Assembly (NCBI RefSeq): GCF_000025505.1
Contig: NC_013849.1
Coordinates: 1,920,001-1,952,000, forward strand
Source: Ferroglobus placidus DSM 10642
Lineage (GTDB): Archaea; Halobacteriota; Archaeoglobi; Archaeoglobales; Archaeoglobaceae
Direction of reading: 5' to 3'
Length of the DNA stretch: 32,000 nt
In this document: positions 9,929-25,097 of the stretch, in pieces
How the letters are laid out: each line of letters opens with the position of its first letter
Position numbering within the stretch: position 1 is the first letter of the stretch
The notes under the pieces: model-generated
Told to the model about the DNA's origin: nothing
Databases searched by the model: none
What the model saw: only the letters and a program-made list of their open reading frames with translations
Program-made: the position numbers and the translations under genes

Positions 9929-10689
9929 CCGAGTACCTCCTCCAAGATTTTTTTCGAAGCAAGTATTCCATCTTCGTCCCGAAGCTCTAAGGTTAGGTAG
10001 CCTTTATAATTCTTTGGTATGAAAGCTTTGAAATCTACGCTCCCCTCTCCGAGGGGGAGGTGCTCGTCGTATTCCCCTCTATTGTCGTGGAGGTGTATGT
10101 TCGCTATCTTTTCTTCGTATTCCAAAAACAGCTCGTGCCCTTCTTTAACGTTGTAATGCCCTACGTCGAGAGTTATCTTGGCTTCGGTCTCCTCGAATAT
10201 TTCTCTGAGCTTCTTTTCTATCACTCCCCTAACGGATATCGTGTTCTCTATAGCCACGATTTCTTTGTCTGCCAAAAATCCTTTAAGCTCCTCGAGAGCT
10301 CTCTCGTTAGTTTTTTCGTACCACCCCTCTTTGAAAATAAATCCCCGGGAAGTTATGAATCCGGGATTCCATCCGAGGTGAATTGTTACTAGCGGCGAAT
10401 CTATCTCTTCGGCGAACTTCAAAGTTTTCTCAAGCTCCTCGTAACTCGCTTTCCTCATCACGCTGCTCACCGAAAGAAAGTTCGTGTAAACGGCCGAAGC
10501 GTGAATTATAATCTCTACGTCGTAGATCCCCTTCAACTCAAGCACAGTTGCGGAATTAAGATACTCGTAATGGTAGTACGGATGATCCATCAAAATCTCT
10601 ACGTGATCGAAATCGTTTTCTTTAGCGAACTTCAAAGCATCTTCGAGCTTCTGATCCACTCCCGGCTGAAAGCCAAGCATAACCATCAC
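9925..10689 (-). CDS. Xylose isomerase-like TIM-barrel protein (sugar-phosphate isomerase/epimerase or AP-endonuclease-2 family)
   Basis: Pattern of metal ligands spaced along a beta/alpha barrel (..HVEI.., ..IHLG.., ..IENT.., ..LDVGH.., ..HLHDN.., ..LELR..). Confidence 0.6.
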   Translation of the reverse strand: MMVMLGFQPGVDQKLEDALKFAKENDFDHVEILMDHPYYHYEYLNSATVLELKGIYDVEIIIHASAVYTNFLSVSSVMRKASYEELEKTLKFAEEIDSPLVTIHLGWNPGFITSRGFIFKEGWYEKTNERALEELKGFLADKEIVAIENTISVRGVIEKKLREIFEETEAKITLDVGHYNVKEGHELFLEYEEKIANIHLHDNRGEYDEHLPLGEGSVDFKAFIPKNYKGYLTLELRDEDGILASKKILEEVLG

Positions 10690-11558
10690 GGATAAACCAT
10701 CGTTCCTATCCCTTCCTTAGTAAACAGCTCAAGGAGAATGGCATGTTCTACTGATCCGTTTATTATGTGTCCCCTCTCCACTCCTCCCTTCAAAGCCTTT
10801 ATTATAGCTTCAGCTTTCGGAATCATTCCGCCGCTAAGCTCTCCTTTTTTAAGCATTTCTTCGAGCTCCTTCAAGCTTATCTTGGAAATTACCGAGTTCG
10901 GATCGTTAACATCCCTAAGTATCCCCGGGACGTCGGTGAGAATGATCAGCTTCTTAGCCTTCAACGCAGCAGCTATGTCTCCCGCAACCGTATCTGCGTT
11001 CATGTTGTAGATGTTCCCGTTCAAGTCGACAGCAACGGGAGAAACTACCGGAATAAAACCGTTATCGATGAGTATTTTCAAAATTTCGGGGTTAACTATT
11101 TCAGTCTCGCCTACGTAACCCAAATCCAACTCGACCTCGCTATCTCCGATCTTCTTCTTCACCTTCTTCTTTTTCGCAACAACAAGCAGTCCGTCCTTTC
11201 CGGACATACCAACTGCTTTTCCGCCGTTTTTTATGAAGAGGGAAACGATCTTGGAATTGATCTTCCCGTCGAGTACCATCTGAACGACTTCTATCGTCTC
11301 CTCATCCGTAACTCTCAGTCCGTCAACGAACTTCGGTTTTATCCCCAACCTCTCCATCTTCTCGCTTATCTCCGGACCGCCACCGTGAACGACGATCGGC
11401 TTAATACCGACGAAATACAGAAGGATGACATCTCTTACGGCACTCTCCAAAATTTTCTCGTTGACCATCGCGTGTCCGCCTATTTTGATGACCATTACTT
11501 TTCCGTGAAATTCTCTTATGTAAGGTAGAGCCTCAACGAGCGTCTTCACTTTTTCCAT
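10686..11558 (-). CDS. argB: Acetylglutamate kinase
   Basis: VIKIGGHAM, VVHGGGPEI and the NMNADTVAGDIAAAL motifs of the amino-acid kinase family, ArgB type. Confidence 0.9.
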   Translation of the reverse strand: MEKVKTLVEALPYIREFHGKVMVIKIGGHAMVNEKILESAVRDVILLYFVGIKPIVVHGGGPEISEKMERLGIKPKFVDGLRVTDEETIEVVQMVLDGKINSKIVSLFIKNGGKAVGMSGKDGLLVVAKKKKVKKKIGDSEVELDLGYVGETEIVNPEILKILIDNGFIPVVSPVAVDLNGNIYNMNADTVAGDIAAALKAKKLIILTDVPGILRDVNDPNSVISKISLKELEEMLKKGELSGGMIPKAEAIIKALKGGVERGHIINGSVEHAILLELFTKEGIGTMVYP

Positions 11559-14108: not shown

Positions 14109-14245
14109 GATTAATTCATAAAATTGTCACGATTTTTTCCGAAACCGCAATTTGAATTTAAAAAGCTTTCTGAGGAGATGCGAGATTCACAAACTCAAAC
14201 ATTCCGAAATCAATTCAACAAAAGCGCCAAATTCAAGTAGAAAAG

Positions 14246-14329
14246 TGCGGGGGGTGGGATTTGAACCCACGAACCCCTACGGGACCGGACCCTAAATCCG
14301 GCGCCTTTTCCTGACTCGGCAACCCCCGC
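14246..14329 (-). tRNA. tRNA-Leu, anticodon UAG, long variable arm, no intron, CCA not encoded
   Basis: The reverse complement reads GCGGGGGTTGCCGAGTCAGGAAAAGGCGCCGGATTTAGGGTCCGGTCCCGTAGGGGTTCGTGGGTTCAAATCCCACCCCCCGCA. It has a 7-bp acceptor stem, the anticodon stem CCGGA/TCCGG with loop TT-TAG-GG, and a T arm GTGGG-TTCAAAT-CCCAC. Confidence 0.92.
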
Positions 14330-18125: not shown

Positions 18126-18852
18126 AGCGCAACACCTCCAGATATTAAAAGTGCTAACAATTCGAAGCCAGGAGTTGCTTTCTTCTCGTATCGAATTTGA
18201 GTCGGCACGGGAGTTCTTACGAATTCAGTAATCTCGAACTTCACTTCCTTTTCCGTTTCATTCTTAGGAATTCTCTTCGTTGGAGAAAAGCTCAAAGGTT
18301 TACTCCAGATTTTTAGCAAAGAGCCGTTTCTCCAGAGTTCAAGTTTTACGAGGTAGTTGTAATCTTTCGGGAGTGTGAGATTTCCTTCAACGAGAGCTGT
18401 CTTACCACCTTCTATTTTAGCTTCTTTCCAGAATTCGTCTGCGAGAATGTTTGATTCGTACTGAACAGCTTTTACGTGAGCCAGAACCTCGTAATCTTTC
18501 AGAGCTTCCACGTAAAATCTTGCAAGAACGACTACTCTGCTATCATTAACTCCAAGAACCGCAAAATCGGCATCCTTCAAAACAACCTTCAGCTCCTTTT
18601 CTTTCGGCAGTATGCTGTCGAGTCCGGTAAGCTTGAACTCCCTTAGATCGAGGACGTCCCCGCCTTTGCTTACCGAGAGAACGACTCTGTAACTCTTATC
18701 CTTTTCGAGAGTTACGAAAACATTCTCCCTACCTTTTTCGCTTTTGACACTCTCACTCGAATTTCTTCCTTTGCAACGTCAGCGAAGAACGGAATGAGGA
18801 AAGCTACGAGAGTTATCGTTGCGAGGAACGCGATCAAAACTTTCCCGTTCAA
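18104..18852 (-). pseudogene. Secreted/surface protein with a PGF-CTERM archaeosortase sorting signal. The signal peptide and the mature part are in different frames.
   Basis: The C-terminus ATPGFELLALLISGGVALWRRRSS is PGF plus a TM helix plus a basic tail. The ORF frame stays open for 81 codons upstream of 18580 without any ATG/GTG/TTG. TTG 18852 opens (M)NGKVLIAFLATITLVAFLIPFFADVAKEEIRVRVSKAKKVGRMFS* in another frame. Confidence 0.7.
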
Positions 18853-18975
18853 AGTTAAATTAAAAATTTACTATTTAAAAATTTATCGATTTTCTAGAAT
18901 TTGAACGTTAGGTTAGCGGAAATTTTATACATCAGCAGAGGTTGAGTTTATTTACTTCTCCGCTTTAATCTATCC

Positions 18976-19599: not shown

Positions 19600-20489
19600 T
19601 CGATATTGCGAAGAGGATTTTCAAATTTGAGGAAGAAGACGCTGGCTTCTTTAAGTTTGGAGACGCTTATATTGTTATAGCGAACGACATGCTTTCGAGA
19701 TCTTTCGACTTTCCCTCAAAGCTTTTACCAAAACAAATCGGCTGGAAAGCCGTGACAGCAAGCGTAAGCGACCTGGCTGCTATGGGAGCGAAGCCCATTT
19801 ATTTCTCCTACTCACTCGGTTTAAGTAGAGAGGAGATTTCGTTCGTCGAGGATCTCATGAAGGGAATAAGAGAGGCTCTTGATTTCTACGGCATGAAATT
19901 TTTGTCCGGAGACACAAACGAATCTACTGAATTGGTTCTGGACAGCGTAGCCGTTGGTATTGCAAGAAACCTTCTTCTAAGAAGCAACGCTAAAGTAGGA
20001 GATGCAGTATGCGTTACGGGAGACCTCGGGAGGGCTTACTGCTCTCTACTATACTTGCTGGAAAAAGTGGAGGAAATTGAAGAGAAAATTCTCGAAAAGT
20101 TTTTAAAGCCGGTAGCGAGGGTTGACGAAGGATTAAAGCTCGCAAATATTGCGAATTCAGCCATAGACGTTAGCGACGGTTTGTCAAAGGAGTTGAATCT
20201 GCTCGCAAACTCAAGCGGAGTGATGATAAAGGTTTTCGAAGATAGAATTCCCATAAGAGAGGAGGTTCTGGAGTTTTGCACTTCTAACAACTTAAATCCG
20301 ATAGAGGTTGCGTTGAATTCCGGAGAGGAATACGAACTTCTCTTCACGGTAAGCAAGGACAAGCTTGAAGATCTGGATTTCGAGTTCAGCATCATTGGGG
20401 AAGTTTCTAAGGGAGAAGGAGTCTTCCTCGTTGGAAAAGAGAAAAAACCATTACTTCCTGCAGGATGGGAGCACTTCTCAAGCAAATAG
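19584..20489 (+). CDS. thiL: Thiamine-monophosphate kinase (AIR-synthase-related fold)
   Basis: EEDAGFF..GDAYIVIANDML....F......PKQIGWKAVTASVSDLAAMGAKP and a later SGDTN motif. Confidence 0.7.
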   Translation: MEREIIDIAKRIFKFEEEDAGFFKFGDAYIVIANDMLSRSFDFPSKLLPKQIGWKAVTASVSDLAAMGAKPIYFSYSLGLSREEISFVEDLMKGIREALDFYGMKFLSGDTNESTELVLDSVAVGIARNLLLRSNAKVGDAVCVTGDLGRAYCSLLYLLEKVEEIEEKILEKFLKPVARVDEGLKLANIANSAIDVSDGLSKELNLLANSSGVMIKVFEDRIPIREEVLEFCTSNNLNPIEVALNSGEEYELLFTVSKDKLEDLDFEFSIIGEVSKGEGVFLVGKEKKPLLPAGWEHFSSK

Positions 20490-20506
20490 CTTCGCCAAAT
20501 TAAAAC

Positions 20507-20522
20507 CGAAAATCTTTTATAT
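20507..20522 (+). promoter_or_regulatory. BRE/TATA-like element CGAAAAT-C-TTTTATAT
   Basis: It matches the archaeal BRE (cRnaAnt) plus an 8-bp TATA. The TATA centre is about 27 nt upstream of ATG 20546. Confidence 0.5.
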
Positions 20523-20545
20523 TGTTTTCGTGAACACTTTGCCGA

Positions 20546-20629
20546 ATGTTGGCAAGGTCTGATGGCAACTTAGCGTTTAGACACTTCTTCTGGTTTACGT
20601 TTAGCTTTAGCTATAGGTATAGCTTCTAA
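20546..20629 (+). promoter_or_regulatory. Candidate leader-peptide ORF, 27 codons: MLARSDGNLAFRHFFWFTFSFSYRYSF*
   Basis: Hand translation of atg ttg gca agg tct gat ggc aac tta gcg ttt aga cac ttc ttc tgg ttt acg ttt agc ttt agc tat agg tat agc ttc taa. There are 7 Phe, 1 Trp and 2 Tyr in the last 17 codons. It lies 89 nt upstream of the aro operon start. Confidence 0.4.
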
Positions 20630-20631
20630 AC
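20599..20631 (+). other. Imperfect 12-bp hairpin overlapping leader codons 18-27 and the stop
   Basis: GTTTAG(20599-20604)/CTAAAC(20626-20631) and AGCTAT(20609-20614)/ATAGCT(20619-20624), with loop AGGT and a 4x1 internal loop. A second GTTTAG at 20575-20580 could pair alternatively. Confidence 0.45.
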
Positions 20632-20718
20632 CTGCAAAAGTTTCTCGGGGGTGTTTCTGCTTTGTCAAACTCCCACTCCTCAAAAATATAAACTTCAAAA
20701 ATAAAAGAGGTGAATAAA

Positions 20719-21504
20719 ATGGTGGGGAAGAGGAGAAGGCTGAAAAAGATATTCAGAAACGATTTGAGCTTAGTGGTGCCAATGGATCACGGAATAACGA
20801 AACCAGAGGCTGGACTGGAGAAAATAGATTTCCTGCTCGAAAGGCTCGACGGCTTGGCAGACGCTTTCGTTTTGCACAAGGGAGTTGTGAAGCATTCGAA
20901 GTACGTTGAGGAGATGGAATCTGCTTTGATAGTTCACCTCTCAGCTTCTACATCACTCTCTCCAGATCCGAACGCGAAAACAATAGTAACGAGCGTAAAG
21001 AAGGCTGTAGAACTTGGGGCTGATGCTGTGAGTGTTCACATAAACGTCGGAAGCGAAACGGAAGAAAGGCAGCTTAAAGAGGTTGGGATGGTCGCCGAAG
21101 AGGCTGACGAATACGGAGTTCCTTTGCTCGTCATGAGCTACCCGAGGGGGAGAGGAGTGGATGAGAAGAAAGTCGAGAACGTCATGCACGCCGCAAGAGT
21201 AGCTTACGAGCTCGGGGCTGATATAATAAAGACGAACTACACCGGAAGCGCTGAGAGCTTCTCCAAAGTCGTTGAAATCGTGGATGTTCCTGTTTTAATA
21301 GCTGGAGGGAACAAAAAGAGCTTTGAAAGTTTCTTGATGGACGTAAGAAATGCGATAAGAGCCGGAGCTAAAGGAGTTGCCGCTGGAAGAAACGTCTTTC
21401 AGGCGGAAGATCCGAGAGGGGTTGTTATGGCTATTAAGTCGGCTTTCAAAGAGGCATTGATAGGTGTGGGAGATGAAGGAGCTTTGGCTGCTAAACAAAG
21501 GTGA
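20719..21504 (+). CDS. aroA': 2-amino-3,7-dideoxy-D-threo-hept-6-ulosonate (ADH) synthase, a class I aldolase (DhnA/FbaB) family member
   Basis: LKKIFRNDLSLVVPMDHGIT... and the Schiff-base region IIKTNYTG. It is directly followed by DHQ synthase II. SD GAGGTGA (20707-20713) favours ATG 20719 over GTG 20710. Confidence 0.7.
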   Translation: MVGKRRRLKKIFRNDLSLVVPMDHGITKPEAGLEKIDFLLERLDGLADAFVLHKGVVKHSKYVEEMESALIVHLSASTSLSPDPNAKTIVTSVKKAVELGADAVSVHINVGSETEERQLKEVGMVAEEADEYGVPLLVMSYPRGRGVDEKKVENVMHAARVAYELGADIIKTNYTGSAESFSKVVEIVDVPVLIAGGNKKSFESFLMDVRNAIRAGAKGVAAGRNVFQAEDPRGVVMAIKSAFKEALIGVGDEGALAAKQR

Positions 21505-22450
21505 AAAGTGGGAGGAAGTCAAAGAGAGCGTGAAAGATGCCATAGAACTCGGCTTTACCGGAGTTATCGTTAGAGAGGAATTTAAAGAACTTGCCGAAAA
21601 ACTCGGAAGGATTGAGGTTTCGTCGGAAGACATTTTTGAGGTAAAAGGAAAGAAGGACGAAGAAGAAGCTTTAAGAATTGCGGAAGAAAAAGGCAGGGTT
21701 TTTCTCGATTTCGAAAACTGGAAGATAATTCCGCTAGAAAACATCGTGGCTATGAGGAAAAAAGGGAAAGTCGTAGTTCTCGTGAAATCTCCGGAAGAGG
21801 CGAAGACAGTCCTGCATACTCTCGAAAAGGGTGCTGATGGAATAATCGTCGAAGCTTACGATAGAGAGAAGCTCGCCGAATTTGCAAACATTATGAGAGA
21901 GGGAGAGAAACTGAAACTCGTGGAGGCTGAAATTAAAAAGATCGTCCCACTCGGAGTTGGAGACAGAGTTTGCGTAGACACGATTACTTTGATGAGCAAA
22001 GGTGAGGGGATGCTCGTAGGAAATAAAGCCGAGTTTATGTTTCTCGTGGCAAGCGAGAGTGAGGAAAGCGAATACGTTTCCGCAAGACCCTTCAGAGTTA
22101 ACGCCGGAAGCGTGAACGCCTACATTAAAGTCGGCGAGAAGACCAAGTACCTCTCGGAGCTTAAAGCTGGGGACAAAGTGGAGATAGTCAGATTCGACGG
22201 GAATACGAGGGAAAGTTACGTCGGAAGGGTGAAGATAGAGAAGAGACCGATGATACTTATAGAGGCTGAAGCTAACGGCTTGAGGGGAAGCGTCATACTT
22301 CAGAACGCGGAAACGATAAAGCTTGTAGGGAAGGACGGAGAGCACTTGAGCGTTTCCGAGTTAAAGGAGGGAGACAAGGTTTTGGTGTGGATAGGCGAGA
22401 AAGCGAGACATTTTGGCGTTGCGGTGGAGGAGTTCATAGTTGAAAGGTAA
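21473..22450 (+). CDS. aroB': 3-dehydroquinate synthase II (archaeal type)
   Basis: MKELWLLNKGEKWEEVKESVKDAIELGFTGVIV... is typical of the DHQS-II family. It overlaps the upstream gene by 32 nt. Confidence 0.75.
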   Translation: MKELWLLNKGEKWEEVKESVKDAIELGFTGVIVREEFKELAEKLGRIEVSSEDIFEVKGKKDEEEALRIAEEKGRVFLDFENWKIIPLENIVAMRKKGKVVVLVKSPEEAKTVLHTLEKGADGIIVEAYDREKLAEFANIMREGEKLKLVEAEIKKIVPLGVGDRVCVDTITLMSKGEGMLVGNKAEFMFLVASESEESEYVSARPFRVNAGSVNAYIKVGEKTKYLSELKAGDKVEIVRFDGNTRESYVGRVKIEKRPMILIEAEANGLRGSVILQNAETIKLVGKDGEHLSVSELKEGDKVLVWIGEKARHFGVAVEEFIVER

Positions 22451-23054
22451 GGTGATTGCAACCGTAAAGAATTTCGCTGAGGTTTCAAAAGTTTTGAGAG
22501 TTGCAGACGGAGTTGAATTTCGCATCGACCTCTTCAGAAAACCTCCAGAGCCGAAGAGCGTTAGGATTGAAAAGATAAGCATAGTGACGATAAGAAAACC
22601 AGAAGACGGAGGAAAGTATTCTGGCGACGAAGAGGAGAGGTTGAAATTGCTCGAAAAATACAGTAAGTTCTGCGATTACGTCGATCTGGAATACTATCTG
22701 GCTGACGAGGTTTTCGAGAAAATGAGCTGCAAGGTAATCGAATCCTACCACAACTTCAGCGAAACACCCGATTACGAGTTTTTAAAAGGAATAGTCGAGA
22801 ACAGAAGGGGAGACATCGTAAAGATAGCCACCCTCGGAAAAAGTAAGAGGGACGTGGAGAAAATTGTGAAATTGCTCTGCGATTACGAAAACGTTGTGGC
22901 ATTTTTAATGGGCGAAGAGTTCGCTTTCACGAGAATTTTCTCTCTTTTCCTCGGCTCACCTTTCATCTACTGCGGAGTTGGAGAAAGCGTTGCCCCCGGG
23001 CAGTACGACGTTTTCAAAGCTGTAAAAATACTTAAGGGGCTGGGATACAGATGA
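22440..23054 (+). CDS. aroD: 3-dehydroquinate dehydratase, type I
   Basis: TTG start. GVEFRIDLF and the IVKIATLGKS (catalytic Lys region) pattern; about 200 aa. Confidence 0.75.
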   Translation: MKGKVIATVKNFAEVSKVLRVADGVEFRIDLFRKPPEPKSVRIEKISIVTIRKPEDGGKYSGDEEERLKLLEKYSKFCDYVDLEYYLADEVFEKMSCKVIESYHNFSETPDYEFLKGIVENRRGDIVKIATLGKSKRDVEKIVKLLCDYENVVAFLMGEEFAFTRIFSLFLGSPFIYCGVGESVAPGQYDVFKAVKILKGLGYR

Positions 23055-24964
23055 AGATCTGCATTTACGGAATGGGAGGAATGGGAAGTTTCTTCAAAAA
23101 CTTCTTCGAGAACAGGGGTTACTTCGTGAAGGGATACGATGTGGTTAAAGAAAAGAGCGAAATAAGATTGGAGGAGGTAAAGAACTTCGACGTAATTTTC
23201 CTGTGCGTTCCGATGGATAAAATAGAGGATGCCGTTAGCGAGATAAAAGAGACTGCTGACAAAAACGCTCTTTTGGTGGACATAGCTTCGGTAAAAAAGC
23301 CTTTCGTGAAAATTTACGAAAGTTCAGGATTTGAATGGATGAGCATTCATCCGATGTTCGGTCCGGATAGCGAGATCGGGCTTTCGAACGTGATAGTCGT
23401 AAGGTTGCCGAAAGATGAGAGGGCTGTAAGGATAGTGGAGGAGTTCAGGAAGAGCGGAGCAATTGTAAGCTTTCTAAGCTTGGAAGAGCACGATGAGGAG
23501 ATGGCGAAAATTCAAAGTACTTCGCACTTCCTCCTCCTCACCCTATCCTATTACCTGAGGGAGTGGTTCAACGAAGAGAAGCTGAAAATTCTCTCGCCAA
23601 TTTCCCTTACTTTGATAAAACTCGCATCGAGGATAATAAATCAGGACTGGAAGATGTACGAGTACATTCTCGAAAACGGAAGAGAAGTTAGGAAGGAGAT
23701 AATAAAAGCTGCCTCGGAAGTTGACAGATTTATCGAAGAGGGAAAGGTTCAGGAACTCTTCGATTACCTAAGAGGAGCGTTCAAAAACGGAAAAAACACG
23801 ACGATAATACTCGACAGTGCAAGAACGACTTTAACTCCGAACTCGCTGGAAGAGTTGAGAGGTTACATAAAAACGGTGGACTCTCTAATTTTGAGGCTGA
23901 TAGAAAAAAGGGTCGATGCCGGGAGAAGAATTGCGCTGGAAAAAATGAAGAGAAACGAGCCGATAGAGGTTTCGGAGGTGGAGTACTTCAAACTCAAGGA
24001 GCTGACGTCGAAAACTTCCCTCGATGCCGGAAGCGTAAGCAGTATTTTCGAGGAAATAATGAGCCTTACGAAGGCTGAAGAATACAAGGTGGCTGGAGTT
24101 GAGAAAAAAGTTGCTGTTCTCGGACCAGCGGGAAGCTTTTCTGAAGAAGCCGCTCTGAAACTCATAGATTCCAAGCTCCCGCTTATTTACTGTTCAAGCG
24201 TCGAAGAAATAGTGAAAGCTGTTGAAAGCGGAAAAGCCGACTTCGGGATTCTGCCGATAGAAAACTCGATAAACGGAACGGTGATACCTTCCCTCGACGC
24301 TCTTCTGAAGCACGACGTTGAGGTTTTTGCTGAAACGGAAGTTGAAGTCAATCTGAATTTGGCTGCTAAAAAGCTTATCGACCTCAAGGACGTTGAAGTC
24401 ATCTACTCCCACCCCCAAGCGGTTTCGCAATGCATGACGTTCATAAACAACTACTTACCCCACGCTGAGATAAGATACACAAGAAGCACGAGCGATGCTG
24501 TATCTCTTTTGGATGAGAAATCTGCTGCAATAGTTTCGGAAAATGCTGCAAAAATTTACAGGCTTCAAATACTGAGAAGAAGCATTCAGGATGCTAAGGA
24601 GAACGTTACGAGGTTTTACGTTGTGAGGAGGAGGGGAGGAGAGGTAAGGGGAAACGTTACAGCCCTTTTCTTCGGAGTGGAAGACAAGCCGGGAGCTCTC
24701 TTCAGCGTTCTTGAGATATTCAAGAGGAGAAACATAAATCTGAGGAAGCTTGAAAGTCGTCCCTCCGGAATTAAGCTCGGAGATTACATATTCTTCGTCG
24801 AAGCCGAAAAGAAGCTTGAGGAGGAAGAGCTGAAAGAGCTGAAGGAAAGGACGACGTTTTATAAAGTTGTTGGGGTGTTTGAAAAAATCGACCGACTTAA
24901 CGTTTTCATTTCGGAGCGAAAAGAATCGTCATCATCAGAAGACCGAAGAGCAAAAGAAGCATGA
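23051..24964 (+). CDS. tyrA-pheA: Trifunctional prephenate dehydrogenase (TyrA) - chorismate mutase (AroQ) - prephenate dehydratase (PheA plus ACT)
   Basis: N-terminal Rossmann MKICIYGMGGMGSFF, then the AroQ helix LEELRGYIKTVDSLILRLIEKRVDAGRRIA. This is followed by PDT (VAVLGPAGSFSEEAA...ENSINGTV) and ACT (ALFFGVEDKPGALFSVLEIFKRRNINL). A fusion of these three activities has been characterised biochemically in Archaeoglobus fulgidus. Confidence 0.85.
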   Translation: MKICIYGMGGMGSFFKNFFENRGYFVKGYDVVKEKSEIRLEEVKNFDVIFLCVPMDKIEDAVSEIKETADKNALLVDIASVKKPFVKIYESSGFEWMSIHPMFGPDSEIGLSNVIVVRLPKDERAVRIVEEFRKSGAIVSFLSLEEHDEEMAKIQSTSHFLLLTLSYYLREWFNEEKLKILSPISLTLIKLASRIINQDWKMYEYILENGREVRKEIIKAASEVDRFIEEGKVQELFDYLRGAFKNGKNTTIILDSARTTLTPNSLEELRGYIKTVDSLILRLIEKRVDAGRRIALEKMKRNEPIEVSEVEYFKLKELTSKTSLDAGSVSSIFEEIMSLTKAEEYKVAGVEKKVAVLGPAGSFSEEAALKLIDSKLPLIYCSSVEEIVKAVESGKADFGILPIENSINGTVIPSLDALLKHDVEVFAETEVEVNLNLAAKKLIDLKDVEVIYSHPQAVSQCMTFINNYLPHAEIRYTRSTSDAVSLLDEKSAAIVSENAAKIYRLQILRRSIQDAKENVTRFYVVRRRGGEVRGNVTALFFGVEDKPGALFSVLEIFKRRNINLRKLESRPSGIKLGDYIFFVEAEKKLEEEELKELKERTTFYKVVGVFEKIDRLNVFISERKESSSSEDRRAKEA

Positions 24965-25097
24965 AGATCATGAAGTTTCTCTGCCTTTTCCTCTCTTCCT
25001 CGTACTTTCTCTCACACCTATCGCTGCAAAAAATTTCTTCCGGCTCTATAGCCTTTCCGCAAACCACGCAGTGTCTGTGAGGAACAATGCCGGGCAT
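24906..25097 (-). CDS. DUF2116-like zinc-ribbon protein with a C-terminal TM helix
   Basis: CVVCGKAIEPEEIFCSDRC (C-x2-C...C-x3-C), then a basic linker and FMIFMLLLLFGLLMMTILF. Confidence 0.5.
   Translation of the reverse strand: MPGIVPHRHCVVCGKAIEPEEIFCSDRCERKYEEERKRQRNFMIFMLLLLFGLLMMTILFAPK

Follow-up and report, generated by a model that had tools for sequence, protein, structure and literature searches.

A conserved, leaderless, aromatic-codon-rich reading frame as a candidate leader-peptide attenuator of an archaeal aromatic amino-acid operon

In a 32,000-nt stretch of archaeal DNA (NC_013849.1, positions 1,920,001 to 1,952,000; hereafter the window, numbered from its first letter), we found that the spacer between the 3′ end of thiL at 20489 and the ATG of aroA′ at 20719 holds a short open reading frame (ORF) rich in codons for aromatic amino acids. 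The ORF spans 20546-20629 (84 nt), reads MLARSDGNLAFRHFFWFTFSFSYRYSF over 27 codons and closes with a TAA at 20627-20629; its last 17 codons include 7 Phe, 1 Trp and 2 Tyr. It is co-directional with an aromatic amino-acid operon, lies 3′ of the only conserved promoter and 5′ of a conserved Shine-Dalgarno (SD) sequence, and its stop is separated from the aroA′ ATG by 89 nt. A tblastn census combined with a reading of the upstream regions found an equivalent ORF in all 32 non-identical Archaeoglobi loci in which aroB′ directly follows aroA′. The whole case rests on sequence comparison, and on this footing we consider it likely that the ORF is a leader, that is, a translated regulatory peptide through which the ribosome would signal to the aro operon how much charged Phe-, Tyr- and Trp-tRNA is available. 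Among archaea, the locus is a strong candidate for the first leader-peptide attenuator, a ribosome-based sensor of amino acids, to be described. The features on which this proposal is built are the following:

20507..20522, forward strand: distal promoter P1, CGAAAAT-C-TTTTATAT, a purine-rich B recognition element (BRE, CGAAAAT) followed by a TATA box (TTTTATAT), read from the sequence
20546..20629, forward strand: leader ORF, 27 codons plus TAA, by translation
20546..20575, forward strand: variable N-terminal half of the leader, codons 1-10, by within-clade comparison
20576..20626, forward strand: aromatic tract, codons 11-27, with 7 Phe, 2 Tyr and 1 Trp alternating with Ser, Thr and Arg up to the last sense codon
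20707..20713, forward strand: SD of aroA′, GAGGTGA, within the nearly invariant block AAAAATAAAAGAGGTG, by sequence and comparison with relatives
20719..24964, forward strand: candidate regulated operon aroA′-aroB′-aroD-tyrA/CM/pheA, by NCBIfam

A first-pass annotation of the window had already read the BRE/TATA element, the ATG, the translation and its aromatic counts, the 89-nt spacer and the SD from the letters, and all of these coordinates and sequences check out. The aromatic content of the leader is far beyond chance or composition. Of the window's 494 ORFs with 12 or more codons, this one alone has nine aromatics in its last 14 residues, the runner-up having six, and the leader alone reaches nine aromatics among the 37,218 stop-free windows of 14 residues taken over all six frames. 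The sole other stretch in the window with at least seven aromatics per 14 residues (IFFFTFFFFATT, 11134-11190, forward strand) runs antisense inside an amino-acid kinase gene (10686-11558, reverse strand) and is most likely a composition artefact.

The comparison draws on an AroA′ protein query that retrieved 80 loci from species-representative genomes and 80 from metagenomes, to which four cultured Archaeoglobi loci were added; one locus (L166) was excluded as too fragmented. The nearest AroA′ relative comes from a Ferroglobus metagenome-assembled genome (MAG) with 96% protein identity. When the spacer was used as a blastn query, segment 20588-20629 recurred about 80-140 nt 5′ of aroA′ in species sharing only about 55% AroA′ identity. 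Archaeoglobi leaders have 20-28 codons, carry 6-10 aromatics (mean 8.6) among their last 14 residues and then stop. Comparing orthologous spacers for a conserved aromatic ORF was a check that the first-pass annotation had proposed; the 32 loci, together with the substitution and indel patterns of the translated frame described below, bear the prediction out. Conforming leaders occur in the cultured species Geoglobus ahangari, Archaeoglobus veneficus and A. profundus, in whose genomes they are not annotated as genes. Examples, each ending directly in a stop codon, are:

L012: MHDIAKAEKLSRFYFGFSFGYWFSF
L010: MPYKFAFNSFEFSFGFWFSC
L011: MPANPVYRDLMNSFFFGYRFYFSFGFSW
Geoglobus ahangari: MPAHTSRYGYFGFFWFNFSFGFSF
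Archaeoglobus veneficus: MELIHSNVGYNFGFWFGFWWFSFSC
A. profundus: MHKMKIPYNPWSFFFFSFSF

Eight leaders gave no match to the leader-peptide families of Pfam or NCBIfam at E-values up to 10, and none of ten leaders queried was present in a collection of 15 billion predicted proteins.

Furthermore, the leader is tied to the operon. The operon gene order is kept 3′ of the leader in L001-L019 and L161-L164, and all 11 loci with an aroA′ paralog that is not followed by aroB′ are without a leader, some of these paralogs lying inside a trp operon. Since thiL is the upstream neighbour in the window's own clade only, other clades having other neighbours, the leader travels with the operon and not with the spacer. 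Three Ferroglobus-like genomes (L020:86-2810, L102 and L119) carry a second aroA′-like paralog within a trp operon of the order trpE-trpG-trpF-paralog-ACT domain protein, and no leader precedes it. One Archaeoglobi clade (L008:3001-4602, L010:2573-4178, L093 and L094) has the leader, then two tandem aldolase-family paralogs, then aroB′; its spacer between leader and gene measures only 34-41 nt and is T-rich, with T5, T4 and T4 runs in L010.

Several independent features suggest that the leader is conserved as a reading frame rather than as a DNA or RNA motif. TTTAGC hexamers read as Phe-Ser in frame 1 and as Leu-Ala in frame 2 and contain TAG in frame 3, and the ATG sets the aromatic frame in 32 of 32 loci, with the stop immediately 3′ of the tract. 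Leader lengths are identical inside each of seven clades, while the adjoining spacers differ by 1 nt in four of the seven; compared with the window, the leader of L082 is shorter by exactly one hexamer. Within clades, 41% of the codons in the N-terminal half differ, with 35, 27 and 37 changes at codon positions 1, 2 and 3, a pattern suggestive of near-neutral drift; in the last 14 codons only 13% differ, with 9, 8 and 19 changes at the three positions, which points to purifying selection on codon meaning in the tail. These signs of translation, namely a frame kept beside 1-nt spacer indels, tail changes biased to position 3 and an ATG at the position of a leaderless start, are all read from sequence. 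A direct repeat (TGTTGGCAA / TGATGGCAA, at 20547-20555 and 20560-20568) lies in the variable N-terminal half of the window's leader and is absent from other clades.

Across clades, Phe, Tyr and Trp interchange with one another and the intervening residues are Ser, Gly, Thr, Arg, Asn or Asp, so that a similar peptide character arises from differing codon strings (for example FEFSFGFWFSC, FFFGYRFYFSFGFSW and FGFWFGFWWFSFSC). The last 16 codons are 58% Phe, Tyr or Trp across loci, and the last sense codon is one of these three in 23 of the 32. Codon choice in the tails also departs from that of the aroA′ genes, TTT:TTC being 132:56 in the tails against 30:54 in the genes and TAT:TAC 56:16 against 34:79. 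U-ending codons would be read by G:U wobble with archaeal tRNA sets, and such codons would make the tract more sensitive to tRNA supply; alternatively, the preference for TTT and TAT reflects an AT-rich intergenic bias.

The start of the leader coincides with the start expected for the transcript. In the window, 23 nt separate the TATA box of P1 from the leader ATG, and each of the 21 relatives scored has a TTTAWATA box with 0-1 mismatch and a GAAA-type purine-rich BRE placed 21-25 nt 5′ of its leader ATG. Scoring covered 21 loci up to L082, in which the contig begins too near the leader, and a similar geometry was seen by eye in the readings of the upstream regions. The leaderless geometry proposed in the first-pass annotation holds throughout this set: the leader ATG would lie at the transcription start of a leaderless mRNA, and we infer that leader and aro operon are co-transcribed from it.

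A proximal TATA-like sequence might have driven the operon on its own, as had been suggested from the sequence:

20684..20692, forward strand: proximal TATA-like AAATATAAA, probably no conserved promoter, by comparison with relatives

In the relatives, the best TATA matches 5′ of aroA′ have 0-4 mismatches, stand 14-37 nt from the start and are without a purine-rich BRE. A promoter P2 at AAATATAAA, with neither quality nor distance conserved, was rejected. As the proximal element is not conserved as a promoter, the comparison favours P1 as the promoter of the operon and the SD-bearing 5′ region as part of the mRNA.

The spacer behind the leader has an organisation of its own, in which we distinguish the following elements:

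20638..20666, forward strand: U/G-rich, A-poor stretch with three T3 runs, containing AAGTTTCTC
20647..20653, forward strand: SD-like heptamer GGGGGTG, 17 nt 3′ of the leader stop, by motif search in relatives
20662..20691, forward strand: possible second short ORF of 9 codons with a TTG start 8 nt after the SD-like motif, weakly supported in the window's clade
20670..20681, forward strand: C-rich element CTCCCACTCCTC with two CUCC copies complementary to SD-type sequences

In the relatives the first 45 nt 3′ of the leader contain 55-88% G+T (at least 70% in 24 of 32) and 4-22% A, and this A-poor stretch of about 45 nt is without stop codons in all three frames, as its composition leads one to expect. 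In most loci an A-rich block of about 35 nt (43-63% A) comes next, the exceptions being the L012 clade (31-34% A) and the short-spacer loci L008, L010 and L163; the block closes with the nearly invariant AAAAATAAAAG(A)GGTG, to which the start codon is joined. A motif [GA]G[AG]GGTG, searched for within 35 nt of the leader stop, occurs 0-18 nt after it in 22 of the 32 loci, compared with a mean of 0.26 and a maximum of 4 in shuffled sequences. Most of the remaining loci have near-matches, and in short-spacer loci (L010, A. profundus) the true SD of aroA′ occupies the place of the motif. A start codon follows the SD-like motif by 3-9 nt in 21 of the 22 loci (12.4 expected). A ribosome starting behind this motif would read to the aroA′ start region in whatever frame it had chosen.

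We rejected the second upstream ORF (uORF) as a conserved coding unit: 1-nt indels interrupt it, L017 has a 1-nt insertion and an early stop, and L081 lacks the start codon. Neither its frame nor its end is conserved, and its length is explained by the A-poor composition. The element CTCCCACTCCTC is kept in the window's clade, and the sequence between it and GGGGGTG is variable and carries an indel; the predicted spacer stem GGGGGU/ACUCCC is not significant when compared with shuffles. The 9-mer AAGTTTCTC occurs only twice in the window, at 20638-20646 and 24973-24981, both on the forward strand, and each copy begins 9 nt after a stop codon, that of the leader and that of the last aro gene, respectively. 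Although noticed post hoc, this placement may mark AAGTTTCTC as a shared termination-related signal.

Next, RNA structure was evaluated around the leader and in the spacer, because the first-pass annotation had placed a hairpin there:

20599..20631, forward strand: imperfect hairpin over codons 18-27 and the stop, probably incidental, by folding

The hairpin exists, with a predicted energy of -8.7 kcal/mol at 37 °C, but it is no better than shuffles, of which 22 out of 200 fold equally well (z = -1.3), and it is not conserved beyond the closest relatives. Wider contexts of the hairpin gave z = +0.27 and +0.38, folding of the whole spacer was not significant on either strand (z = -1.75 and -0.40), and the GTTTAG arm once thought to compete with the hairpin is neither significant nor conserved. 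An SD sequestration switch gained little support, masking by the ribosome shifting the predicted accessibility of the aroA′ SD little and inconsistently. A programmed frameshift into a spacer-spanning frame was rejected: in the window, the +1 frame has no stop between the tract and a point 1 nt short of the aroA′ ATG, but a 1-nt indel between L006 and L009 changes the frame relation and many loci close at once. Collectively, the folding predictions support no RNA switch in Archaeoglobi.

We also found leaders in a second order. Seven Methanomassiliicoccales-type loci have a leaderless Phe-rich uORF 5′ of aroA′, in these regions:

L069:675-826
L070:2852-3003
L073:2845-3000
L079:2847-3000
L143:1054-1203
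L147:267-408
L158:1067-1203

These leaders, such as METMSRGTAIVFSFSAFRSFSFTF, MVNTSYGFDVGPSFFSFRSSAFIF and MRTQSCGRVIMTHFSFFHSFGF, each followed by a stop, are unrelated in sequence to those of Archaeoglobi, and the comparison indicates that they are an independent version. RNAalifold predicts a 10-bp stem inside the uORF, with compensatory changes at two pairs, and an invariant 8-bp GC hairpin (GGCCUGCC/GG(C/U)AGGCC) 1-2 nt after the stop, followed by a short U-run (CAUUUU or CAUUUC). By these predictions the architecture looks more like that of a bacterial attenuator. Leaders of aromatic codons would thus have converged before the first archaeal shikimate-pathway gene in two orders, as expected of a sensor and not of a micropeptide or an operator. 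Among the 160 loci, no aromatic leader was found in Methanosarcina, Methanothrix, Hadarchaeota, Hydrothermarchaeota or anaerobic methanotrophic archaea (ANME). More than 15 Methanosarcina loci (L024, L028, L029, L045, L051, L060-L066 and L110-L116) have a conserved 44-aa ORF about 100-250 nt 5′ of aroA′, MLVVYNSAGFRLKKNARIMQLLFYTL..EGYSGVYQNENTK, which is not aromatic-rich. Three Hadarchaeota loci (L022, L041 and L048) have a small ORF beginning M-x-ITLRR-x-S-x-NL about 70-170 nt 5′ of aroA′.

Under the mechanism that we propose, transcription from P1 would start at the leader ATG, and the leader would be translated as a leaderless cistron as soon as it emerges. With plentiful aromatic aminoacyl-tRNAs, the ribosome would cross the tract, terminate and depart; with scarce ones, it would linger on the 10 aromatic codons that reach the last sense codon. 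A lingering ribosome would shield the last part of the leader together with the nucleotides just behind its stop, and the position of this ribosome would decide whether a translatable transcript reaches aroA′. Because the aromatic codons extend to the last sense codon and a conserved element stands right behind the stop in both lineages, such a ribosome would cover the junction and stay near the RNA polymerase. After normal termination the naked, U/G-rich and A-poor spacer would be prone to premature termination, through oligo-U or through aCPSF1/FttA. Under scarcity, the lingering ribosome, a second ribosome loaded at the SD-like motif, or both, would keep the RNA polymerase covered and permit read-through into aroA′, and a ribosome reloaded at the SD-like motif may escort the polymerase through the stop-free spacer into aroA′. 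The direction of this regulation, that is, more expression at low tRNA charging, would follow from the same steps.

As to the output step itself, attenuation that is independent of a hairpin is a tentative choice suggested by the sequence. A purely translational relay or occlusion is somewhat more doubtful, and an RNA switch too weak to be modelled seems improbable. For the wider claim, we lean slightly towards the view that Archaea have ribosome-mediated amino-acid attenuators, of which the Archaeoglobi leader would work without an RNA switch, the position of the ribosome being coupled to premature termination (oligo-U or aCPSF1/FttA) or to SD reloading, and the hairpin version of Methanomassiliicoccales would have evolved independently. 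The attenuator reading of the first-pass annotation is carried forward in part: the conserved aromatic leader ORF tied to the operon stands, the hairpin and its competing arm fall away, and the word attenuator denotes a putative function here.

A number of observations weigh against a ribosome-based sensor or against the output step sketched above. A scan for intrinsic terminators and sigma-70-type promoters found no terminator-like site in 20300-20900, as the first-pass annotation had noted for the sequence after the hairpin, and the spacer has T runs of T3 only, compared with the frequent T5-T6 at true gene ends in the window. There is no significant or conserved RNA structure in the Archaeoglobi leader and spacer, and no helix common to the clades. 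Pairing of the tract with the ribosome-binding site (RBS) of aroA′, which would give a duplex as in mycobacteria, has z = +0.4 against shuffles, and pairing with the SD-like motif z = +0.45. Over 13 lineage groups the aroA′ SD is more open in silico with a ribosome in the tract than with one at the stop, by +0.03 at 37 °C (p = 0.027) and +0.04 at 70 °C (p = 0.013), an effect in the expected direction that speaks for a sensor but is tiny. Simple coupling models tended to have the wrong sign, predicting that abundant amino acids raise expression, and no single output model was derived that fits every spacer length with the right sign. A. sulfaticallidus (L164:1340-1450) is the one exception to the conserved frame: its aromatic run WFSFGYPFFY-stop is out of frame with the TATA-spaced ATG, owing to a GGG run that is one G shorter than in L012, and either the leader has decayed naturally or a homopolymer was misassembled. 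Ser is encoded by AGC in 85% of cases, and TTTAGCTTTAGCTAT and the hexamer TTTAGC are conserved as nucleotides beyond what a constraint on the peptide only would give, which needs either recurrent hexamer slippage or an extra nucleic-acid constraint. Finally, in the trpCDEGFBA operon of a related MAG (L165:4425-4685) the TATA box is close to trpC and no Trp-rich leader precedes the operon. From this one related trp operon, the leader mechanism is not general for aromatic operons in the group. A screen of all retrieved DNA for short ORFs rich in single amino acids gave noise only, and in the window no biosynthetic operon besides this one has a long leader. In L165, a tRNA-like sequence on the reverse strand, recognised by eye, precedes the trpCDEGFBA operon.

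Four other explanations have to be set against a sensing leader. The ORF could be translated and not sense anything, acting as a constitutive 5′ cistron that loads ribosomes and stabilises the transcript, or boosts aroA′ by coupling or re-initiation, its aromatics being a by-product of the expansion of the T-rich hexamer TTTAGC. The leaderless geometry, the strong SD-like motif with a start codon right behind the stop, a hexamer copy number that differs between close relatives (one unit fewer in L082) and the undetectable RNA switch would all agree with such a cistron, and re-initiation after leader genes has reportedly been proposed to raise expression in bacteria. We nevertheless regard it as unlikely, since it leaves unexplained why every lineage has an aromatic tract made from differing codon strings, TGG and TAT/TAC included, why Methanomassiliicoccales have a Phe-rich leader of unrelated sequence 5′ of the same gene, and why the ORF is missing at aroA′ paralogs outside the operon. 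Still less probable is an untranslated nucleic-acid element, in which (TTTAGC)n and the neighbouring motifs would form an operator or a binding site for a protein that recognises U-rich RNA and the frame would be incidental. Against it stand the ATG at a fixed distance from the TATA box and in the aromatic frame in 32 of 32 loci, the stop directly after the tract, the lack of frame-breaking indels beside a spacer that has 1-nt indels, and the position-3 bias of tail substitutions. The strong conservation of TTTAGCTTTAGCTAT as nucleotides, the AGC choice for Ser and palindromic arrangements in the window (I2 and I5) would speak for such an element; however, the palindrome AGCTAT-N4-ATAGCT, once offered as an operator, is restricted to the window's clade, the site lies 30-80 nt past the transcription start, an unusual place for an archaeal operator, and no Tar box lies near the promoter.

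A functional small aromatic peptide (for example membrane-active or enzyme-binding), merely co-expressed with the aro operon, would account for a conserved translated frame with a constrained C-terminal half. What is conserved, however, is composition alone: only Met1 is invariant, lengths range over 20-28 residues and the N-terminus shows neutral drift. No family matches the peptide, the alternating F-S-F-S tail has no recognisable fold or transmembrane segment, and a sensor would predict the specific tie to aromatic biosynthesis seen in two orders, so that we give this peptide very little credence. The least probable explanation in our view is a classical attenuator of the bacterial type, with alternative hairpins and an intrinsic terminator, including the hairpin with the competing GTTTAG arm. 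A hairpin over the stop is indeed present in the window, a GGGGGU/ACUCCC stem is predicted in the spacer, and the Methanomassiliicoccales version has conserved hairpins; yet no terminator-like site accompanies the structures of Archaeoglobi, which are no more stable than shuffles (z = -1.3, +0.27 and +0.38) and not conserved across clades. Cultured Archaeoglobi grow at about 75-90 °C, where AU-rich stems would melt, the predicted minimum free energy of the whole 5′ region being only -4 kcal/mol at 75 °C.

The genes flanking the spacer were assigned by NCBIfam, which identifies thiL (thiamine-phosphate kinase) on its upstream side and agrees with the co-directional block read by the first-pass annotation on the other:

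20719-21504, forward strand: 2-amino-3,7-dideoxy-D-threo-hept-6-ulosonate synthase (ADH synthase; aroA′)
21464-22450, forward strand: 3-dehydroquinate synthase II (DHQ synthase II; aroB′)
22440-23054, forward strand: type I dehydroquinase (aroD)
23051-24964, forward strand: prephenate dehydrogenase-chorismate mutase-prephenate dehydratase (tyrA-chorismate mutase-pheA fusion)

Rfam 15 gave nothing in the spacer at the gathering score, its sole match at E-values up to 10 being a spurious snoRNA of 15.7 bits; elsewhere in the window it found one tRNA. ARAGORN placed the only tRNA of the window, a tRNA-Leu, at 14245-14329 and none in the spacer. The spacer is not the longest non-coding region of the window, as had been thought: a divergent region of 395 nt (18581-18975) between a DUF7490 gene on the reverse strand and an RNA 2′-phosphotransferase gene on the forward strand exceeds it and has no Rfam match.

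If the proposal is correct, the leader would be the first demonstrated case in the archaeal domain of transcription-translation coupling put to regulatory use. The conserved leader in cultured species (Geoglobus ahangari, Archaeoglobus veneficus, A. profundus and probably a Ferroglobus) offers a concrete testable case, which could reveal if, and in what way, the ribosomes of archaea control transcription or translation further downstream, and how a switch of this kind operates at 80-90 °C, temperatures at which AU-rich RNA helices are unstable. It also illustrates that short leaderless ORFs, never reported by gene callers, can be found via comparative genomics.

Leader-peptide attenuation is a textbook mechanism of bacteria and relies on ribosomes that trail the RNA polymerase. 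Transcription-translation coupling has been observed in archaea, and factor-dependent polarity there is attributed to FttA/aCPSF1. A full-text library of limited coverage yielded no account of leader-peptide control for any archaeal gene, and what it returned for the A. fulgidus locus was unrelated; one tool paper makes the general statement, with no example, that uORFs regulate archaeal genes. Among the closest counterparts are pheL-pheA, pheM-pheST and trpL-trpEDCBA of E. coli, which likewise have a short co-directional ORF directly 5′ of the operon, rich in codons for the end product, with the regulatory codons towards its 3′ end and no constraint on the remaining peptide. Those systems are bacterial and SD-dependent, whereas the leader described here is archaeal and leaderless, with no SD before the ATG in most loci. 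The E. coli attenuators also have a GC hairpin with a U-run terminator and alternative 1:2, 2:3 and 3:4 helices, neither of which is detected here; the aromatic codons of the Archaeoglobi tract alternate with Ser or Gly instead of forming runs, and all three aromatic amino acids are represented. Sequence relation to the leader families of Pfam or NCBIfam is absent.

In logic, though not in parts, the proposed mechanism resembles tnaC (Rho) and the pyrBI leader of E. coli, where the ribosome itself masks a termination element: in all of these the leader ends at or next to its regulatory codons or stall site, a conserved element stands directly after the stop, and a ribosome there could bar a termination factor or keep a termination signal from forming. 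Rho is not known from archaea, where aCPSF1/FttA or an intrinsic oligo-U signal would be the candidate, and tnaC senses free Trp via its nascent peptide rather than tRNA charging. Known control of aromatic biosynthesis in archaea is by DNA-binding proteins, of which TrpY in Methanothermobacter is an example. Another, Tar (TK0271) of Thermococcus, recognises a TGGACA-N8-TGTCCA box (PMC6737238). They control the same pathway in the same domain, but as transcription factors that bind upstream of or over the BRE/TATA, while the element conserved here is a reading frame downstream of the transcription start and no match to the Tar box, with up to 3 mismatches, was found near 20400-20720.

A likeness in geometry is offered by the experimentally studied polycysteine leaderless small ORFs of mycobacteria, in which stalling of the ribosome blocks the RNA duplex by which the downstream RBS is sequestered (Canestrari et al., bioRxiv 10.1101/834739). 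As here, a leaderless first cistron of a biosynthetic operon carries a tract of cognate codons and ribosome pausing is the proposed means of sensing; the effector there, and perhaps here, is translational rather than a terminator hairpin. Unlike in mycobacteria, the tract in Archaeoglobi has no complementarity to either SD beyond that of shuffles, and masking it hardly alters SD accessibility. Leaderless leader peptides have also been predicted in Deinococcus deserti from sequence and transcription start sites (PMC4007540); these again are AUG-first transcripts with short, cognate-enriched peptides 5′ of amino-acid biosynthesis or tRNA synthetase genes. D. deserti is a bacterium, however, and its authors invoke a classical terminator/antiterminator (PMC4007540).

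Taken together, the sequence features common to attenuators as a class, namely a short upstream ORF, enrichment of cognate codons and conservation, appear at the Archaeoglobi locus; those of the classical family, an intrinsic terminator, alternative helices and an SD-led leader, do not. The principle is known from bacteria; its putative use in archaea, from a leaderless start and apparently without an RNA switch, is new.

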